Shown: one piece after another, positions 18,108 to 27,481 of the stretch
Layout of the letters: the number at the start of each line of letters is the position of its first letter
Numbering within the stretch: position 1 is the stretch's first letter
Virus record (IMG/VR): IMGVR_UViG_3300032135_000040
Coordinates: 1-30,234 of that record
Source of the DNA: a virus
Taxonomy: Duplodnaviria > Caudoviricetes
DNA length: 30,234 bases
Reading direction: 5' to 3' (one strand)
Notes under the pieces: generated by a model
Told to the model about the DNA's origin: nothing
The model's input: only the letters and a program-made list of their open reading frames with translations
The model's database searches: none
Program-made: the position numbers and the translations under genes

Positions 18108-18959
18108 CTAGTTGTTCGCGGGCGCTGTAAACGCAGTGAGAGTCGGTGCGCCCGTGGCAACACCAATCGAGTTAAATTGGATCGTGCGGGTTACACCAGG
18201 CGGGTTGGTCCACCAGTCGCGGCGGGTGAGGAAACCAGAAACAGGGGACTGGCCATCAATGAACGCCTGCCCGCTGCGCAAATCGACGGACACGGTCGAC
18301 CCGAGGGGGATGGTTCGCTCGAAACGAATCTCTCGACCAAGCTCGACACATACCGCACTGAACCCACCCTCGAGACCACCCGTTACCTCGATTATTGAGT
18401 AGGTTTCGGCCTCGCCGGTGTTTGTGGTAACCACGCGGCCCGAGATGCCTGCCGCGCCGAAGTCGATGGGGAACACGATGGGGAACTCAATACCGCCACC
18501 ACCCGACGGCAGGCCGGTCGATAGAATCTCAACGGGCCCATATGTGCGCGGGTCTTTCATCATCAGCGGGATCGTGAAATCAGCGATCGCGTTCTCATCG
18601 GACACATAGAAGCCGAGCTTGCCGTCGAACTCAACGTAGGCGGTGCGCACTGAACCATCTGTCGAATCGGTGACGGTCACAGGCCAACCGGGGGCTAGCT
18701 GCTTCAACCCCATCAGGGTTGTGCGCAGTGCACGGATTTGCGCGGCACCTCCGGGGTGGATGATGCGCCCGACGATTTCGAAGTACTTCGCATCGTCGTA
18801 CACCGGCGACTGCCCAAACACACCATGCCCAGTGTTGCGGCGCACCTTTTCACGTTTCACATCGGCGCTGTCGTCCCACCCGGGCAGATCGACCAAATAA
18901 GGGTCGGTGCCAGTGTCGGAGTTCATCAAAGCAATCACGGGCAGGGTCACGGTGATCAT
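18108..18959 (-). CDS. Distal tail protein (Dit-like)
   Basis: Directly follows the TMP (TGATG); LPGWDDS...DPRTYG...FPIVFPIDFG...N.G. Confidence 0.8.
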   Translation of the reverse strand: MITVTLPVIALMNSDTGTDPYLVDLPGWDDSADVKREKVRRNTGHGVFGQSPVYDDAKYFEIVGRIIHPGGAAQIRALRTTLMGLKQLAPGWPVTVTDSTDGSVRTAYVEFDGKLGFYVSDENAIADFTIPLMMKDPRTYGPVEILSTGLPSGGGGIEFPIVFPIDFGAAGISGRVVTTNTGEAETYSIIEVTGGLEGGFSAVCVELGREIRFERTIPLGSTVSVDLRSGQAFIDGQSPVSGFLTRRDWWTNPPGVTRTIQFNSIGVATGAPTLTAFTAPANN

Positions 18960-21919
18960 CAGAAGCCTCCGAGCTCGTCTTTGATATACCCGCGAATCCA
19001 TGCTGTGCCACCAACAAGTTCAAGCTTGCCGACGATCTCTCGCGGGCCTGAACGACCACTGCTTGCGGGTTGCGAGCCACTCCGGCCGCCGTCACCGAAC
19101 GACTGGCCACCCTTCGGTGTCAGTGTGTATCCGAACTCGTCGGCGGCCTCAGCAAGAACCTGTGTGGATCGTCCGCGCTTCGCTGGGGCTGCAGGGATGT
19201 ACCACTCGCCGCCAGTTTCCGGTTCCGCCCACACCCTAGTGGTGCCTGCGCGCGCGAACTGGGCGATATGGTTCTCCCGCCCACCGTCTGCGTAGAAGTT
19301 GACCTTCCCACCATCAGCCTGATACATCCATGCGTTGTCTTTGATGCCCTGCTGTGCCTGCGGGGTGAGGAACATAGGAATGTTGATGCGGCGACCTGAG
19401 GCCGTAGTGATGAAGTTGTCAAGCGTCTTCAGTGCCGTTTGCGTGTCGGCGATGATCTTGATTTCCTTCTCGGAGGGCATCTGCACGATCGTGTCGGAAA
19501 GGTACTGAATCTGCTCATCGGTTGCGCCGAGGTCGCGGGCGCGCTGTAGGACTGCGTCACGGCCGGCGCGGAGGTTCGCGACATAGTTCTCGGTGTTGCC
19601 GTCGAGAGCGAATTGGTCTTCGGCAGCCTTCTGGTAGCCGCCCGCAAGATCGTTGAGCATGGCCATGTTGTCGCGACCGACCTGAGTGTTCTGACCCATC
19701 CCCAGGGAGAAGCCATCAACACCCTCGCGGGCTTTCCGGATCTGCTCATCGACTTCGAACAGCGCATTTTGGTAGTCCAGGTTTGAGGAGACCGCATCCT
19801 GCCCGACACCGTTGGCTTCGTTCATCTTCGCAATGAGACTGTCGAGAGTGTCGGTGAGTCCATCGGCTTCATTAGCAGCATCAAGGTACGCGTCAGCAGC
19901 CTCGGTAGATGCTTTTGCCCCGTCACCCTGAGCAAGTTTGAGCAGTGCCGTGTTCGCGGCAGCCTCGTCAGTGGCTGAAATGTTGATGCCTTGCGCGTTG
20001 GCTATGTCGATCAGCGCTTCCCGATATTCGGGCATCGTTTCGAGCAAAGTGACGAGCTGCTTCTCTGAAAGGTTCTGCCCATCGGTGAGCAAACGGAAGG
20101 CTTTCTGTGCACCAGGCAGATCATTCGCCGCAAGATCCGCAAGTTGCACACCAGCGTCTTTGACAGCGTTGCGGAAACCACCAGTTTCGGTAGTGAATCG
20201 CTTCCACACGTCATCGTTGAGTTCTTGCACGCGACCCAACATGTATCCCATGTTTTCTAGGTCGGCTGTGACGTCACGCCACGCAGTGACGTTGCGTCCT
20301 TCACCCAGCACGGCAAACAATTCGGCTTGAGATTGCGCTGTGGTTAGAGCATTCGTAACCTCTGTCGACGAAGCCTTCAGCGAGTCAAGGTACGAGGTGA
20401 GCAGTACTACGCCGACTGCGGCGGCGGCAAGCGCAACACCCCACGGGCCAGCAAGGAAAGAAGCGGTGCCACGGATTGCGGCAGTAGTCTTCGGCATCTG
20501 GGTTGCCAGGAGAGCGGTCGCGACACGGAACTCGGCAATCTTCGGGATTGCCAGTAGGGCCACACCTCCACTGAGGATGATCGCCCCAGCAAACAGCGCA
20601 AGAACACCAATAGCACCCTGTACAGGTTCGGGTAATCCACCAAGGAATGATGCGAACGCGGAAAGACCGTCCGATGCGTCCGAAATTGCGGGGAGGAACA
20701 CCTGCCCGAAACCAATCGCCGCATCCATGACGTTGTTCTTCGTGATCGCAAGCTTCGAAGCGACAGTGTCGTACCGTTTCGCCGCCTCAGAAGTGAGTGC
20801 GTTGTTCGCGTCGAATGCTTCGTTGCCGGTCTCCATCGCCTCAGTGAAGGAGTCAGACGCGGCAGCAGAACGCAGCAGAGCGTCACGCATCCGCACTTCG
20901 GTGATGCCAAGTTCCTCAAGCATCCCCAGGGTGGAACCACCCTGTTCTTCCGCATCAGCAAGGCCCTTCACGAACAGAGCTAGAGCTGCGCCCGGGTCGG
21001 TCTTCCACTTCTTTGCGAACTCGTCAGCGGAAACCCCGGCGATTTCGGCGAACTGGTCGAGACGTTTCCCGCCCTTGTCAACAGACGCAGCGATGTCGAT
21101 CATGACCTTCGAGACGGCGGAACCGCCAGCCTCAGCCTCAATACCCACGGAGGAGAGTGCGGCGGCAAGCCCCAGCGTTTCACCTTCGGTGAGGCCTACC
21201 TGCTTTGACGCACCAGACAGACGGGTCGCCATCGCCACGATCTCGGCCTCGGTGGTGGCGTAGTTGTTGCCAAGTTCCACCACAGACGAACCAAGGTTCG
21301 AAACCTTATCCTGTGAGGTGCCCATAACGTTCATGAACCGCGCAAGGGCTGTGGCGGCTTCGTTGGCTGAAAGGTTTGTTGTTTCGCCAAGGTCGATCAT
21401 GGTCTTCGTGAACGCGACAACGTTCTTTGTTTGCACACCCAGCTGACCTGCAGCCTCTGCTACCGCTGCGATCTCCTGATGGGATGCCGGAAGTACCTTA
21501 GTGAGGTCGCGGAGGCCGTCTTCGACCGCTCCAAGCTCCTCAGGGGTGCCTTCCACAGTTTTTGTGACGCCAGCCCACGCCGACTCCCAGTCGATCGCAA
21601 CCTTCGCCGTGAGGGCGACCATTGCGAGCACGGATGCGCCGATGCCGACGGCAGCGGTACCGATCTGGGTTTGGGCGCGCTTGACGTCCTCGCCGAGTTG
21701 CTTCGCAGCGCGAGAGGCTTCCGCTTGTTCCTTCGCGAGACGTTTCGCCGACTGGGCGGCAGTCTCCTGCTTCTTGCCCAGTTCCTCGGTGGACTTCGCA
21801 GTCTCTTTCGAGGTGGTGCCGACCTTCTTAGCGGTCTGCTCCGCCCCGGCCATGGCCGTTTGGAAGACCTGGTCCCCGGCCACTTGAATGTTGAATACTA
21901 TCGATCCGGCGTCGAACAC
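18959..21919 (-). CDS. Tape measure protein
   Basis: 986 aa, Ala-rich; WESAWAGVTKTV...LGNNYATTEAEI core; TM region; follows the chaperone genes. Confidence 0.95.
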   Translation of the reverse strand: MFDAGSIVFNIQVAGDQVFQTAMAGAEQTAKKVGTTSKETAKSTEELGKKQETAAQSAKRLAKEQAEASRAAKQLGEDVKRAQTQIGTAAVGIGASVLAMVALTAKVAIDWESAWAGVTKTVEGTPEELGAVEDGLRDLTKVLPASHQEIAAVAEAAGQLGVQTKNVVAFTKTMIDLGETTNLSANEAATALARFMNVMGTSQDKVSNLGSSVVELGNNYATTEAEIVAMATRLSGASKQVGLTEGETLGLAAALSSVGIEAEAGGSAVSKVMIDIAASVDKGGKRLDQFAEIAGVSADEFAKKWKTDPGAALALFVKGLADAEEQGGSTLGMLEELGITEVRMRDALLRSAAASDSFTEAMETGNEAFDANNALTSEAAKRYDTVASKLAITKNNVMDAAIGFGQVFLPAISDASDGLSAFASFLGGLPEPVQGAIGVLALFAGAIILSGGVALLAIPKIAEFRVATALLATQMPKTTAAIRGTASFLAGPWGVALAAAAVGVVLLTSYLDSLKASSTEVTNALTTAQSQAELFAVLGEGRNVTAWRDVTADLENMGYMLGRVQELNDDVWKRFTTETGGFRNAVKDAGVQLADLAANDLPGAQKAFRLLTDGQNLSEKQLVTLLETMPEYREALIDIANAQGINISATDEAAANTALLKLAQGDGAKASTEAADAYLDAANEADGLTDTLDSLIAKMNEANGVGQDAVSSNLDYQNALFEVDEQIRKAREGVDGFSLGMGQNTQVGRDNMAMLNDLAGGYQKAAEDQFALDGNTENYVANLRAGRDAVLQRARDLGATDEQIQYLSDTIVQMPSEKEIKIIADTQTALKTLDNFITTASGRRINIPMFLTPQAQQGIKDNAWMYQADGGKVNFYADGGRENHIAQFARAGTTRVWAEPETGGEWYIPAAPAKRGRSTQVLAEAADEFGYTLTPKGGQSFGDGGRSGSQPASSGRSGPREIVGKLELVGGTAWIRGYIKDELGGF

Positions 21920-23578: not shown

Positions 23579-23989
23579 TCAGGCGGAAGGCCGATAACTG
23601 CGGTTGCGCGCAACTCGGTCGTCAACATTGTCTTGAACAGTGCCGAGGAGAAGGTGCTCGGGATTGCAACACGGCGGATTGTCGCACGAGTGGCGAACGA
23701 GCAAACCCTCAGGTATCGGGCCGTAAGCGAGTACATATGCGGCTCGATGAGTGCCTACGGTCTTCCCACCGAAGCGGATACGTCCGTATCCCCACCGATC
23801 TACAGAGTTGATCCACTCGATGCAACCATTGGGTTGAACCGAGAGCCCAGATGCGAGTCGTTCGGAGGCTGAAACAGCGCTTCGATATAACTGCCCGTTT
23901 CCGCCCTTGCGCTTGTAGTGCATCTTGCACATTCCGCGCGAGTGGCTGGCGCGTTCGCAGCCTTCGATAGAACAGATACGCTGGGTCAC
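23579..23989 (-). CDS. HNH homing endonuclease
   Basis: CSIEGC...RGMCKMHY; GCIEW...GYG...HRAAY...HSCDNPPCCNPEHL..GT..DN. Confidence 0.92.
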   Translation of the reverse strand: MTQRICSIEGCERASHSRGMCKMHYKRKGGNGQLYRSAVSASERLASGLSVQPNGCIEWINSVDRWGYGRIRFGGKTVGTHRAAYVLAYGPIPEGLLVRHSCDNPPCCNPEHLLLGTVQDNVDDRVARNRSYRPSA

Positions 23990-24870: not shown

Positions 24871-25211
24871 GTTGCCCAAATCTCCACATGGCTTGGGGTT
24901 CTCGGATACGAGAAGAAGGATGAGTCGATTACTTCGGCCTCACGCTCGCGCGTAGTGCCAGCCCACACGGTGACCTTTGATGCGGGCAGCACATCATTCG
25001 CAGTGAGCAGCACAACGAATGTGGAGGCGGTGATCTCCTGCCCTACCGTGGGGGACGATGAGCGGCGGTCGACCACGAGCTTCGACTTCTGCTCCACATA
25101 CGCGGGCACATCCGGTACTGGTTCGGCGTAGGTGACACCCTCAGCACCTTCTCCAGCGAGGCGGGTGACGATAATGCGGTGCGGAAGGTGACGTTTGCGG
25201 AGCCTAGGCAT
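24867..25211 (-). CDS. Head-to-tail stopper
   Basis: Size, position and beta-rich pattern ending HVEIW. Confidence 0.7.
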   Translation of the reverse strand: MPRLRKRHLPHRIIVTRLAGEGAEGVTYAEPVPDVPAYVEQKSKLVVDRRSSSPTVGQEITASTFVVLLTANDVLPASKVTVWAGTTREREAEVIDSSFFSYPRTPSHVEIWAT

Positions 25212-25220
25212 GAGCGCCCC

Positions 25221-25640
25221 CTACGAGTGATAAACGGTCGCGGAGATAAGACCCGCGTTCGTGAGGATGGTGACAGCAGCTTCACCAATCCTGCCAACGA
25301 GCTTGTCGCGGGGAGAATCGGATGCCTGGTTGCTGTTCGTAGTGCCGAGGGACACAGAACCGATCTTCACCGCGCCCGCACTAGCTTCGGCACCACGCGG
25401 GTCATCGGTGTCCTCCCAGAATTCGACGATCGCGCACGTCGCTTCCGTGAACGCATCGGCGATCGTGGCGTCCGTGGGGTAGTTGTCCTCGTCGACGTCG
25501 TACCGGGCAAGGCGGGTGAGAGCTTCTACCTCTGACGATGCGGAGCGGAGCCGCTTGCCGAGCTTCGTTTCGTCGCCCTCGAACGGTTCCTCAGCGAAAG
25601 CTCCGTACTCGGCTGCTGTGGCGTACACACGCTGGGCCAT
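25221..25640 (-). CDS. Head-to-tail adaptor
   Basis: YATAAEY...LRSAS...ATCAIVEFW...KIGSVS...L.NAGL. Confidence 0.8.
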   Translation of the reverse strand: MAQRVYATAAEYGAFAEEPFEGDETKLGKRLRSASSEVEALTRLARYDVDEDNYPTDATIADAFTEATCAIVEFWEDTDDPRGAEASAGAVKIGSVSLGTTNSNQASDSPRDKLVGRIGEAAVTILTNAGLISATVYHS

Positions 25641-25643
25641 GGT

Positions 25644-25862
25644 CTATTCCTCGTCGTTGTCGATGCGAGCACGAATGAGCGCAGCAGACTCGCGGGCGGC
25701 AAGTTTTATGTCTGCCGCTGCCAATAGCGCAATGTTTCGGGCGTGAATGGCGGGGGATGCGGGGATGTACCACTCGCCCTCGGTTTCCGGTTCAGCCCAT
25801 GGCAACGTGCCGGATTCTCCCTTGACGAAACCGCCGTCAGGCAGAGCTGAGGTGTCGGCCAT
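25644..25862 (-). CDS. 72-aa protein carrying a copy of the TMP C-terminal motif
   Basis: Tightly packed ORF; WAEPETEGEWYIPASPA versus TMP WAEPETGGEWYIPAAPA. Confidence 0.75.
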   Translation of the reverse strand: MADTSALPDGGFVKGESGTLPWAEPETEGEWYIPASPAIHARNIALLAAADIKLAARESAALIRARIDNDEE

Positions 25863-25864
25863 GA

Positions 25865-26212
25865 TCAGTTGAAGGACGTAGAGGGGAGGGTTGGGAGGGA
25901 CTTACCGTCACCGATGATCGTGCCGTCAAACATCTCTACGATCGCGAACGGGCCTTCATCGCCGGAATCGGGGTCGACTGGTGTGCCAGCCTTGACCTCA
26001 GCGGCTTTCCCGGGCTTCGCGGGCTTGCGCTTGCCGGAACGCTTCTTGGGCTGTACGGGGCGCTCAGTGTCCTCAATCGTGAAGTTGTGCAGCACGAGCG
26101 CTGCACGAACCTCTGGGTGGAGATCAGCAACCTCAGCGAACCCGTCATGAAAGGTCACGCCGACGAACGTCTGCTTACCGGCCTGCGGGCGCGGATGTGT
26201 GATGCGGGCCAT
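25865..26212 (-). CDS. Hypothetical protein following the capsid gene
   Basis: 115-aa ORF with GGAG RBS; VGVTFHDGFAEV N-terminus. Confidence 0.75.
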   Translation of the reverse strand: MARITHPRPQAGKQTFVGVTFHDGFAEVADLHPEVRAALVLHNFTIEDTERPVQPKKRSGKRKPAKPGKAAEVKAGTPVDPDSGDEGPFAIVEMFDGTIIGDGKSLPTLPSTSFN

Positions 26213-26242
26213 GATGCTCCGATCAGAGAGAGTGGGAGGGGT

Positions 26243-26279
26243 GCGAGGCCGCGACAGGGAGGATCTGCCGCGACCCCAC
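26243..26279 (-). terminator. Hairpin after the major capsid gene
   Basis: GTGGGGTCGCGGCAG...CTGTCGCGGCCTCGC on the minus strand, with G-U pairs. Confidence 0.55.
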
Positions 26280-26287
26280 GGGTCGGT

Positions 26288-27481
26288 CTAAACGAAGACC
26301 GGGAGACCACGCAGCTGGGCGTGAGCCTTCTCGTTGCCGTACTCCAGACCGATCTCGCCGTACAACTGCGAACGAGTCGCAGAGCCGACCTTGGCCAGCG
26401 GCTCTTCGAAGAAGTGACCTTGACCCTCAACTTCGAGGAAGAACGGTGAGAGCTGCTCAAGCGAAACAATCGCGAGAGCATCCTGCGGGAGCTGGCGGTC
26501 CAGCATGATGTTGAGCGTCCCGAAGTCCGTCTCGATCGTGGTGAGGTTCACACCACCGACGTTGCGGGTTCCGGCCAGCGGGTCGGACTTCGCGTACGCA
26601 GCCGCGTAGGTAGCGGTGAGGTTCCGCTTCTGCGAGGAGTTGCACGCGATCGTGGCCGAAACAACGTCACCCAGACCGCCGTTGTCGTACGCCTTCTGGA
26701 ACAGACCGTTGTAGGTGTCCAGGGTGGGCGCCGTCGAGGATACCGGGATGACCTTCACACCGGTGGCAGTGCCGAGCGTGATGGCCGCGCCACCAGAGGT
26801 AGCAGCGACCTTGAACGAGGCCGTCGTGGAGACCGACTCGACAAAGTACACCTTGCCGATGACCACCGAGGTGATCGCGTCGCGAGCAGTGAACACAACC
26901 TTGTCGCCAACGTTGAGCGCGTGAGTGACAGTGATGACGTTCGTTGCCGTGGTGGCGGTGAGTTCACCGGAACCGTAGATGACACGGTTCGTGCTGATTG
27001 CCTGCAACAGACCGCGGGTCTTGCGTGCGGTCGTGTTGTCGGTCGGCTTGTTGTACTCGCCATTCCAGAACGCGTGGTTCACGTCCTTCGCGACAGCCTT
27101 CAGCTCGTTCATGACCTGGTGGTCATGCTCGTTGGCGATGGGGTTTGTGCCCTCAACACCTGCCGTGTTCGTCTTGTTCTGGGTGCCCTGCTTCGTGTAC
27201 GAAGTTTCCACCGCAGAGTGGTGAATTTCGGCCACGTTCGTGACGTTTGAGCGGACACGCGACTGTCCGGCCGGAGCGTTCGCGCCCTCAAGCGCTACGT
27301 TCTGGTCGTTGTCGCGCAAATCCTCGATCTGCCATTCCTTCTCAGTCGACTTCACCGAGACACCACCGGTGAGACCACCGATAGCAGAGAGCAGAGGGGT
27401 TGCCTCCGGGGTGATCTGGAACAGTTCACCGACGAAGTTGGGCAGGTTGTATGTGGTGCCTTGACCGGTAATTCCGGGCAT
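26288..27481 (-). CDS. Major capsid protein (SU10/DUF5309-like) with an inserted beta domain
   Basis: TTYNLPNFVGELF..TP..TPLLSAIGGLTGG...ALEGANAP...RKTRGLL...ETDFG...LYGEIGLEYGNE. Confidence 0.9.
   Translation of the reverse strand: MPGITGQGTTYNLPNFVGELFQITPEATPLLSAIGGLTGGVSVKSTEKEWQIEDLRDNDQNVALEGANAPAGQSRVRSNVTNVAEIHHSAVETSYTKQGTQNKTNTAGVEGTNPIANEHDHQVMNELKAVAKDVNHAFWNGEYNKPTDNTTARKTRGLLQAISTNRVIYGSGELTATTATNVITVTHALNVGDKVVFTARDAITSVVIGKVYFVESVSTTASFKVAATSGGAAITLGTATGVKVIPVSSTAPTLDTYNGLFQKAYDNGGLGDVVSATIACNSSQKRNLTATYAAAYAKSDPLAGTRNVGGVNLTTIETDFGTLNIMLDRQLPQDALAIVSLEQLSPFFLEVEGQGHFFEEPLAKVGSATRSQLYGEIGLEYGNEKAHAQLRGLPVFV

Follow-up and report, generated by a model that had tools for sequence, protein, structure and literature searches.

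Several temperate Microbacteriaceae phages carry a come-and-go mini-gene built from a tape measure protein module at one fixed head-gene slot

Genes and features at the locus

The window analysed here is the whole stretch of 30,234 nucleotides of an IMG/VR virus record, and it belongs to a temperate siphophage in which integrase, capsid, adaptor and tape measure protein (TMP) genes are present (Pfam and PHROG). Among its named relatives, prophages of Subtercola, Leifsonella and Microbacterium are the closest, and the sequencing runs containing this phage are mostly labelled as brine metagenome. The relevant features are as follows:

26288..27481, minus strand: major capsid protein (PF17236, E 2e-76)
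25865..26212, minus strand: post-capsid gene, 115 aa, with a swappable tail and only a weak match to phrog_15682
25660..25883, no strand assigned: cassette of about 224 nt, missing in empty alleles (empty loci L017 and L018; contigs of the DNA runs)
25644..25862, minus strand: accessory ORF, 72 aa, a stand-alone derivative of a TMP module, with nine protein alleles known
25749..25799, minus strand: TMP-like patch of 51 nt within the accessory ORF, a putative recent gene-conversion tract
25641..25659, minus strand: conserved junction (last codons, stop and a purine-rich, RBS-like stretch) common to filled and empty alleles
25221..25640, minus strand: head-tail adaptor (phrog_541, E 8e-14)
18959..21919, minus strand: TMP, 986 aa (PF10145, E 2.5e-20; PHROG TMP families)
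19082..19330, minus strand: TMP module with no established name (GG motif, E-N-H segment, W-A-E-P core, K-R-x-R-S helix and second GG motif)
19181..19231, minus strand: TMP copy of the 17-residue motif (TMP residues 897-913)

The accessory ORF is a small gene within the late operon, located between the capsid and adaptor genes with tightly coupled spacing. The stop of the post-capsid gene lies 2 nt before its ATG, and the adaptor start is found 3 nt after its own stop. All eight slot ORFs that we inspected either start 0-2 nt from the upstream stop or extend up to the adaptor start. No RBS was found upstream of the start of the window ORF, and the adaptor was observed to retain its own purine-rich site in both filled and empty alleles. 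No promoter-like site was found within 25100-26400 and there is therefore no sign of lysogenic expression of the accessory ORF. A single, very shallow RNA run (X20, 0.05 share) gave no contig over the ORF and carries no weight either way. A readthrough fusion of the ORF with the upstream gene seems unlikely, as the frames differ and a canonical slippery site was not seen in the sequence.

Searches of Pfam, PHROG and NCBIfam returned no match for the 72-aa ORF. It is not itself a TMP, being short, without a TMP family domain and located before the adaptor. AlphaFold predicts mostly one helix (residues 37-71; pLDDT 66.4) with a low-confidence N-terminal half, and the model of the TMP end is poor (pLDDT 47.7). 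The nearest named look-alike in the ESM Atlas was a cluster with PF09718 on 18% of its members (0.83), which is a lead only. The neighbouring post-capsid gene (L438, L401 and L394 in addition to the window) has a conserved head of about 50 aa followed by swappable tails. Elsewhere, in the tail operon, an HNH endonuclease (window 23579-23989) was observed to be present, absent or relocated in close relatives (L004, L005, L013 and L017).

The TMP module

The 17-residue motif lies within a module of about 75 residues in the TMP, in which a GG motif, the W-A-E-P core and an aromatic-I-P are followed by a helix. The module has no match in Pfam or the PDB. It matches 153 of 50,697 GenBank phage records, and among the matches listed 58 of 60 are annotated as TMP and two as hypothetical. 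Carriers include cultured Microbacterium foliorum phages, Microbacterium phage AvGardian (gp16) and H1. One to three copies are found in long actinophage TMPs. In P0010-P0022 the copies bracket inserted segments, and a Pfam scan of the segments between repeated modules in five long TMPs named no enzyme domain. In one family (401 genomes), frames of at least 724 aa account for 31 of 35 module matches.

The earlier note placed the motif at the TMP C-terminus and linked it to engagement of the tail tip. The motif does lie towards that end (residues 897-913 of 986) but 73-89 residues before it, and not in the terminal segment. In 31 of the 32 cases with a stop in view, the last TMP module is likewise 80-137 residues away from it. 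The link to the tail tip is weak, since the ordered TMP part in the tail-tip structures, as these are reported, comprises only the last 32-35 residues (PMC11445458, PMC12617516, PMC10038345); the module is therefore not the tail-tip anchor. The accessory ORF does not align to the terminal helix of this anchor, which is about 33 residues long and forms a helical bundle in the hub, and the motif ends 73 residues earlier. The T5 TMP is reported to be cut after R1127 and the lambda TMP is also cut, near the relative position of the module (PMC10038345, PMC12617516). In addition, the genes after the TMP (window 18108-19001 compared with L005 and L016) diverge sharply, with Dit at 50% and 24% identity, while the TMPs stay 72-83% identical, so the TMP end is a module boundary.

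Relationship between the accessory ORF and the TMP

Our comparison confirmed that ORF and TMP share 15 of the 17 motif residues and that their DNA differs at 8 of 51 nt, five of the differences being synonymous. This match is not due to chance, as tblastn within the window gave E = 3e-10 for the pair and 0.28 for the next best hit. A profile comparison of the ORF with the TMP module (E 1.6e-10 over 31 columns) aligned only ORF residues 21-51. The DGG reported before the motif is real in both proteins but the linkers differ, the ORF being without the E-N-H segment, which showed no variation across an alignment of 60 TMP modules.

The synonymous excess had been read as selection on the ORF peptide rather than recent duplication debris. 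This reading fails because the patch is as close to TMPs as TMPs are to one another. As an example, the TMP alleles of five close relatives differ mutually at 4-13 of the same 51 nt, and the TMP allele of L340 is nearer to the window ORF (6 of 51 nt) than is the window's own TMP (8 of 51). The first 33 nt of the patch show 10-15 differences from the sister alleles against 3-5 from the closest TMPs, and the flanks of the patch in the window ORF are ordinary sister-like sequence. The excess divergence of the patch is significant against four of seven sisters, and a similar excess was noticed in two sister-sister pairs. The 15/17 match is particular to the window allele. The conserved Glu was observed to be lost in all seven sister alleles with DNA and kept in 195 of 201 TMP modules.

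Judged from these alignments, the 51-nt stretch is most likely a recent gene-conversion patch with a TMP allele as its donor. The accessory gene is older than this patch, and the TMP-like state of the window allele is probably derived, as distant members of the family share the Cys of the sisters. If the patch did come from a TMP, the synonymous excess would reflect selection in the TMP donors and would say little about the accessory gene. An insertion that captured the last codons of the upstream gene was also considered; it is not polarisable, since the shared end is the junction common to filled and empty alleles.

Alleles and selection in the brine group

Members of the accessory ORF family are 55-73 aa long. 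Nine protein alleles were found in the brine group, eight of them with DNA, and all are intact with indels in frame only. When scored on a TMP-only profile (201 TMP stretches; 1000 shuffles per query), eight of eight brine alleles beat 1000/1000 shuffles. The gene is absent from three close relatives (L017-L019). Furthermore, contigs of all three DNA runs contain three coexisting types, namely an empty slot, an allele identical to that of the window and a divergent one, and the joint of the empty allele was found at 25659-25884 (25898 in X3).

The dN/dS was 0.56 for the eight alleles (p 0.004) and 0.46 for the seven sisters without the window allele (p 0.0006), values that recombination can bias. 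By part, it was 1.28 in the first 21 codons, which look neutral, then 0.49, and 0.37 in the helix (p 0.003). The gene as a whole evolves at 3-6 times the dN/dS of the adaptor (0.16) and stopper (0.08). In simulations of neutral substitution all eight alleles stayed open in 37 of 5000, a figure also open to bias from recombination. The intact alleles came from protein-based searches, which favour intact ORFs and so weaken these selection figures. The accessory ORF is thus under weak purifying selection. Neutral decay among the homologues, which would have counted against the earlier proposal of a TMP mimic, was not observed (dN/dS 0.46-0.56).

Distribution of the slot gene

Stand-alone homologues in other phages, on which the same proposal depended, were found at the same position before the adaptor. 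Single-sequence searches recovered brine alleles only and suggested a gene local to that group, which was overturned by family-wide profile searches. Same-slot relatives found in this way are L104 (in G352, also G419), L357, L372, L412, L410 and L423, and the adaptors of the distant phages are 46-68% identical. Sixteen of 58 distinct slots are filled and 42 are empty (9 of 12 filled among brine-group slots, 7 of 46 elsewhere), in a survey where most loci were chosen because their TMP carries the module. On the adaptor tree (57 rows, 15 filled, with L012 dropped as truncated) ten gains or losses of the slot gene were counted, at least seven of them forced by supported branches.

On the TMP-only profile L104, L357 and L372 beat 1000/1000 shuffles and are clearly TMP-module-like. 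L423 and L412 are barely so (matched by 4/1000 and 67/1000 shuffles respectively) and L394 is not (640/1000). On a profile of sister alleles, no shuffle reached the score of L412 or of the C-terminal piece of L410, and 3/1000 reached that of L394. The slot gene of L410 is frameshifted between motif and helix, making it a pseudogene or an assembly error. The L394 slot holds a Cys-rich ORF of 54 aa before the adaptor, and this ORF matches the sister-allele profile only weakly.

The slot genes share residues that are rare or absent in TMPs. A Cys in the motif occurs in six of seven sisters and in L104, L357 and L410, and in none of the 201 TMP stretches. A change of S to N was observed in 10 of 11 family members compared with 6 of 201 TMP stretches, and in the K-R-x-R-S segment the Lys is kept in 0/11 slot ORFs and the Ser in 1/11. 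Absence of the E-N-H segment is a further mark of the family. Of the brine alleles, L011 and L012 resemble L357 (0.49-0.51) more than they resemble any of the 192 TMP cores (maximum 0.43-0.49), and they have non-TMP residues in common with L357, L410 and L412. A single lineage appears to unite the brine alleles with L357, L410 and L412. L104 and L372 are no closer to other mini-genes than to TMPs and may each have been captured independently.

The module also recurs outside both TMPs and the slot. Three of 71 post-capsid gene tails carry its second half in frame. In prophage G148 (L186:6125-6322, G148:C10) a 46-aa ORF lies among small genes before the terminase; its core peptide is perfect and it has an RBS-like stretch, and the prophage's own TMP has a different module subtype. 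Of 123 viral loci with the exact motif, two are stand-alone. In 78 the frame stays open over 120 or more upstream codons, in 42 the flank is too short to tell and in one a stop occurs 182 codons upstream. Several other candidates were discarded. Most of the 21 inspected among 77 short proteins matching the module look like TMP end fragments, the 203-aa frame of G275 and the 128-aa frame of G261 look like broken TMPs, the 121-aa match of G448 is antisense to another gene, and P0009 and P0019 are unrelated repeat proteins. As a separate observation, the G352 prophage (L104:2175-2585, L185) has neck and tail genes and the slot in common with the window, and the window capsid protein is unmatched there, which suggests a different capsid family.

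Taken together, at one fixed head-gene slot several temperate Microbacteriaceae phages carry a come-and-go mini-gene that is built from the TMP module.

Possible functions of the mini-gene

The gene originates from the TMP module, sits in a fixed slot, is present or absent within one brine phage population, has been gained or lost repeatedly, is weakly constrained and has family-specific residues. We tentatively propose that it is a dispensable late-operon accessory gene whose product may act as a free decoy, competing for the binders of the module. Translation is likely coupled to the upstream stop codon, so that the ORF and the TMP would be produced at the same time. A binding surface could be preserved by the retained W/E-P, aromatic-I-P and R-x-x-x-hydrophobic residues, while the module's own role would be lost along with E-N-H and K-R, and the window allele appears to have received a fresh patch from a TMP allele through gene conversion. 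The candidate binder would most plausibly come from the host or a prophage and attack C-terminal regions of the TMP while tails are being assembled; the literature searched, as far as those texts were available, named no binder of the module. A decoy would fit the gene's place in the late operon, its patchy occurrence and rapid change, and its re-patching from the TMP. Recurrence of the motif outside TMPs, in the post-capsid gene tails and in G148, also supports it, as does the reported case of Tab, where TMP C-termini are targeted and the attack is countered from the late operon (PMC10884400). The proposal is weakened by the fact that most alleles are poor mimics (Glu lost in 7/7 sisters, Lys in 11/11), and by the high dN/dS, the neutral-looking first 21 codons, the frameshifted L410 and the barely TMP-like L423 and L412. 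Avs18 is moreover reported to bind a central helical segment of the TMP instead (10.64898/2026.01.04.697583). A more specific version, in which an anti-defence decoy family derived from the phage's own TMP module is carried as a slot cassette, kept current by gene conversion from the TMP and aimed at an actinobacterial defence that reads the module, seems doubtful.

Three other explanations were weighed. The main rival is that the ORF is near-neutral spacer or debris: a junction prone to recombination would receive TMP fragments time and again, and the frame would be kept only for translational coupling to the adaptor. We consider this somewhat unlikely. The close fit of all eight inspected ORFs between their neighbours, the high dN/dS with a neutral N-terminus, one frameshifted and two decayed members, the possibly separate captures L104 and L372 and the 42 of 58 empty slots would all be expected of such debris, whereas the affinity of L011 and L012 to L357 over any TMP core, with non-TMP residues common to L357, L410 and L412, the helix dN/dS below 1 and the adaptor's own purine-rich site, retained whether the slot is filled or empty, argue against it. 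Alternatively, the module may be a docking or loading tag, with the free peptide packed inside the neck or the lumen of the tail and perhaps co-ejected, or tuning TMP maturation. The position of the ORF among head-completion genes, the half-modules fused to the upstream gene (3/71 tails) and the location of the last TMP module (80-137 residues from the stop in 31/32), near the cuts reported for the T5 and lambda TMPs (PMC10038345, PMC12617516), agree with such a virion accessory, but the gene is dispensable in close relatives and the ORF lacks the module's invariant segment, making this role unlikely.

Interference with competitors, in which the peptide would poison tail assembly in co-infecting phages with the module, is very unlikely. 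The motif subtype of the G148 ORF is missing from the TMP of G148 itself, and such divergence from self would limit self-harm, but no promoter-like site is present in 25100-26400 and the window allele hardly differs from the motif in its own TMP.

Comparison with known systems and implications

The actinophage TMP module (AvGardian gp16, H1) and the ORF share the GG motif, the W-A-E-P core and the aromatic-I-P followed by a helix. Unlike the module, the ORF is free-standing at 55-73 aa, lacks E-N-H and K-R, and gains Cys and R-N. Inhibition by Tab of Pseudomonas phage JBD26 is reported to map to the TMP C-terminus, and a late-operon gene counters it (PMC10884400). This anti-Tab gene resembles the accessory ORF in being a small gene of the late operon. 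It is a counter-defence gene and non-essential once its partner is deleted, but the portion of that report available to us does not describe it as a TMP copy and places it beside tab, between terminase genes (PMC10884400). No tab-like partner of the accessory ORF was identified, and a PADLOC defence scan of 11 proteins, covering part of the window ORFs, gave no matches.

Host defences that engage the TMP are described for SNIPE, which acts at injection (10.1101/2025.11.03.685801), and for Avs18, which senses a central helical segment of about 130 residues (10.64898/2026.01.04.697583). A TMP decoy would therefore have targets, although both systems, as reported, are defences and not decoys. Lambda gpHC and T5 TMP-pb2C are small products of the same general TMP region (PMC12617516, PMC10038345). 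According to these reports they are cut from the TMP and keep its hub-binding terminal helix, whereas the accessory ORF is a separate gene without that helix. Searches of the open literature returned no description of the module or of a stand-alone copy.

Our findings mark a highly conserved and hitherto nameless TMP module as something that phages repeatedly lift out as a gene of its own, and the accessory ORF offers a cheap handle on the role of this module. The module is present in cultured phages of Microbacterium foliorum, so laboratory experiments can separate the decoy, cargo and spacer explanations. If the ORF is indeed a decoy, it would represent counter-defence by self-mimicry that a structural gene supplies through gene conversion, and it would point the way to the defence factor.
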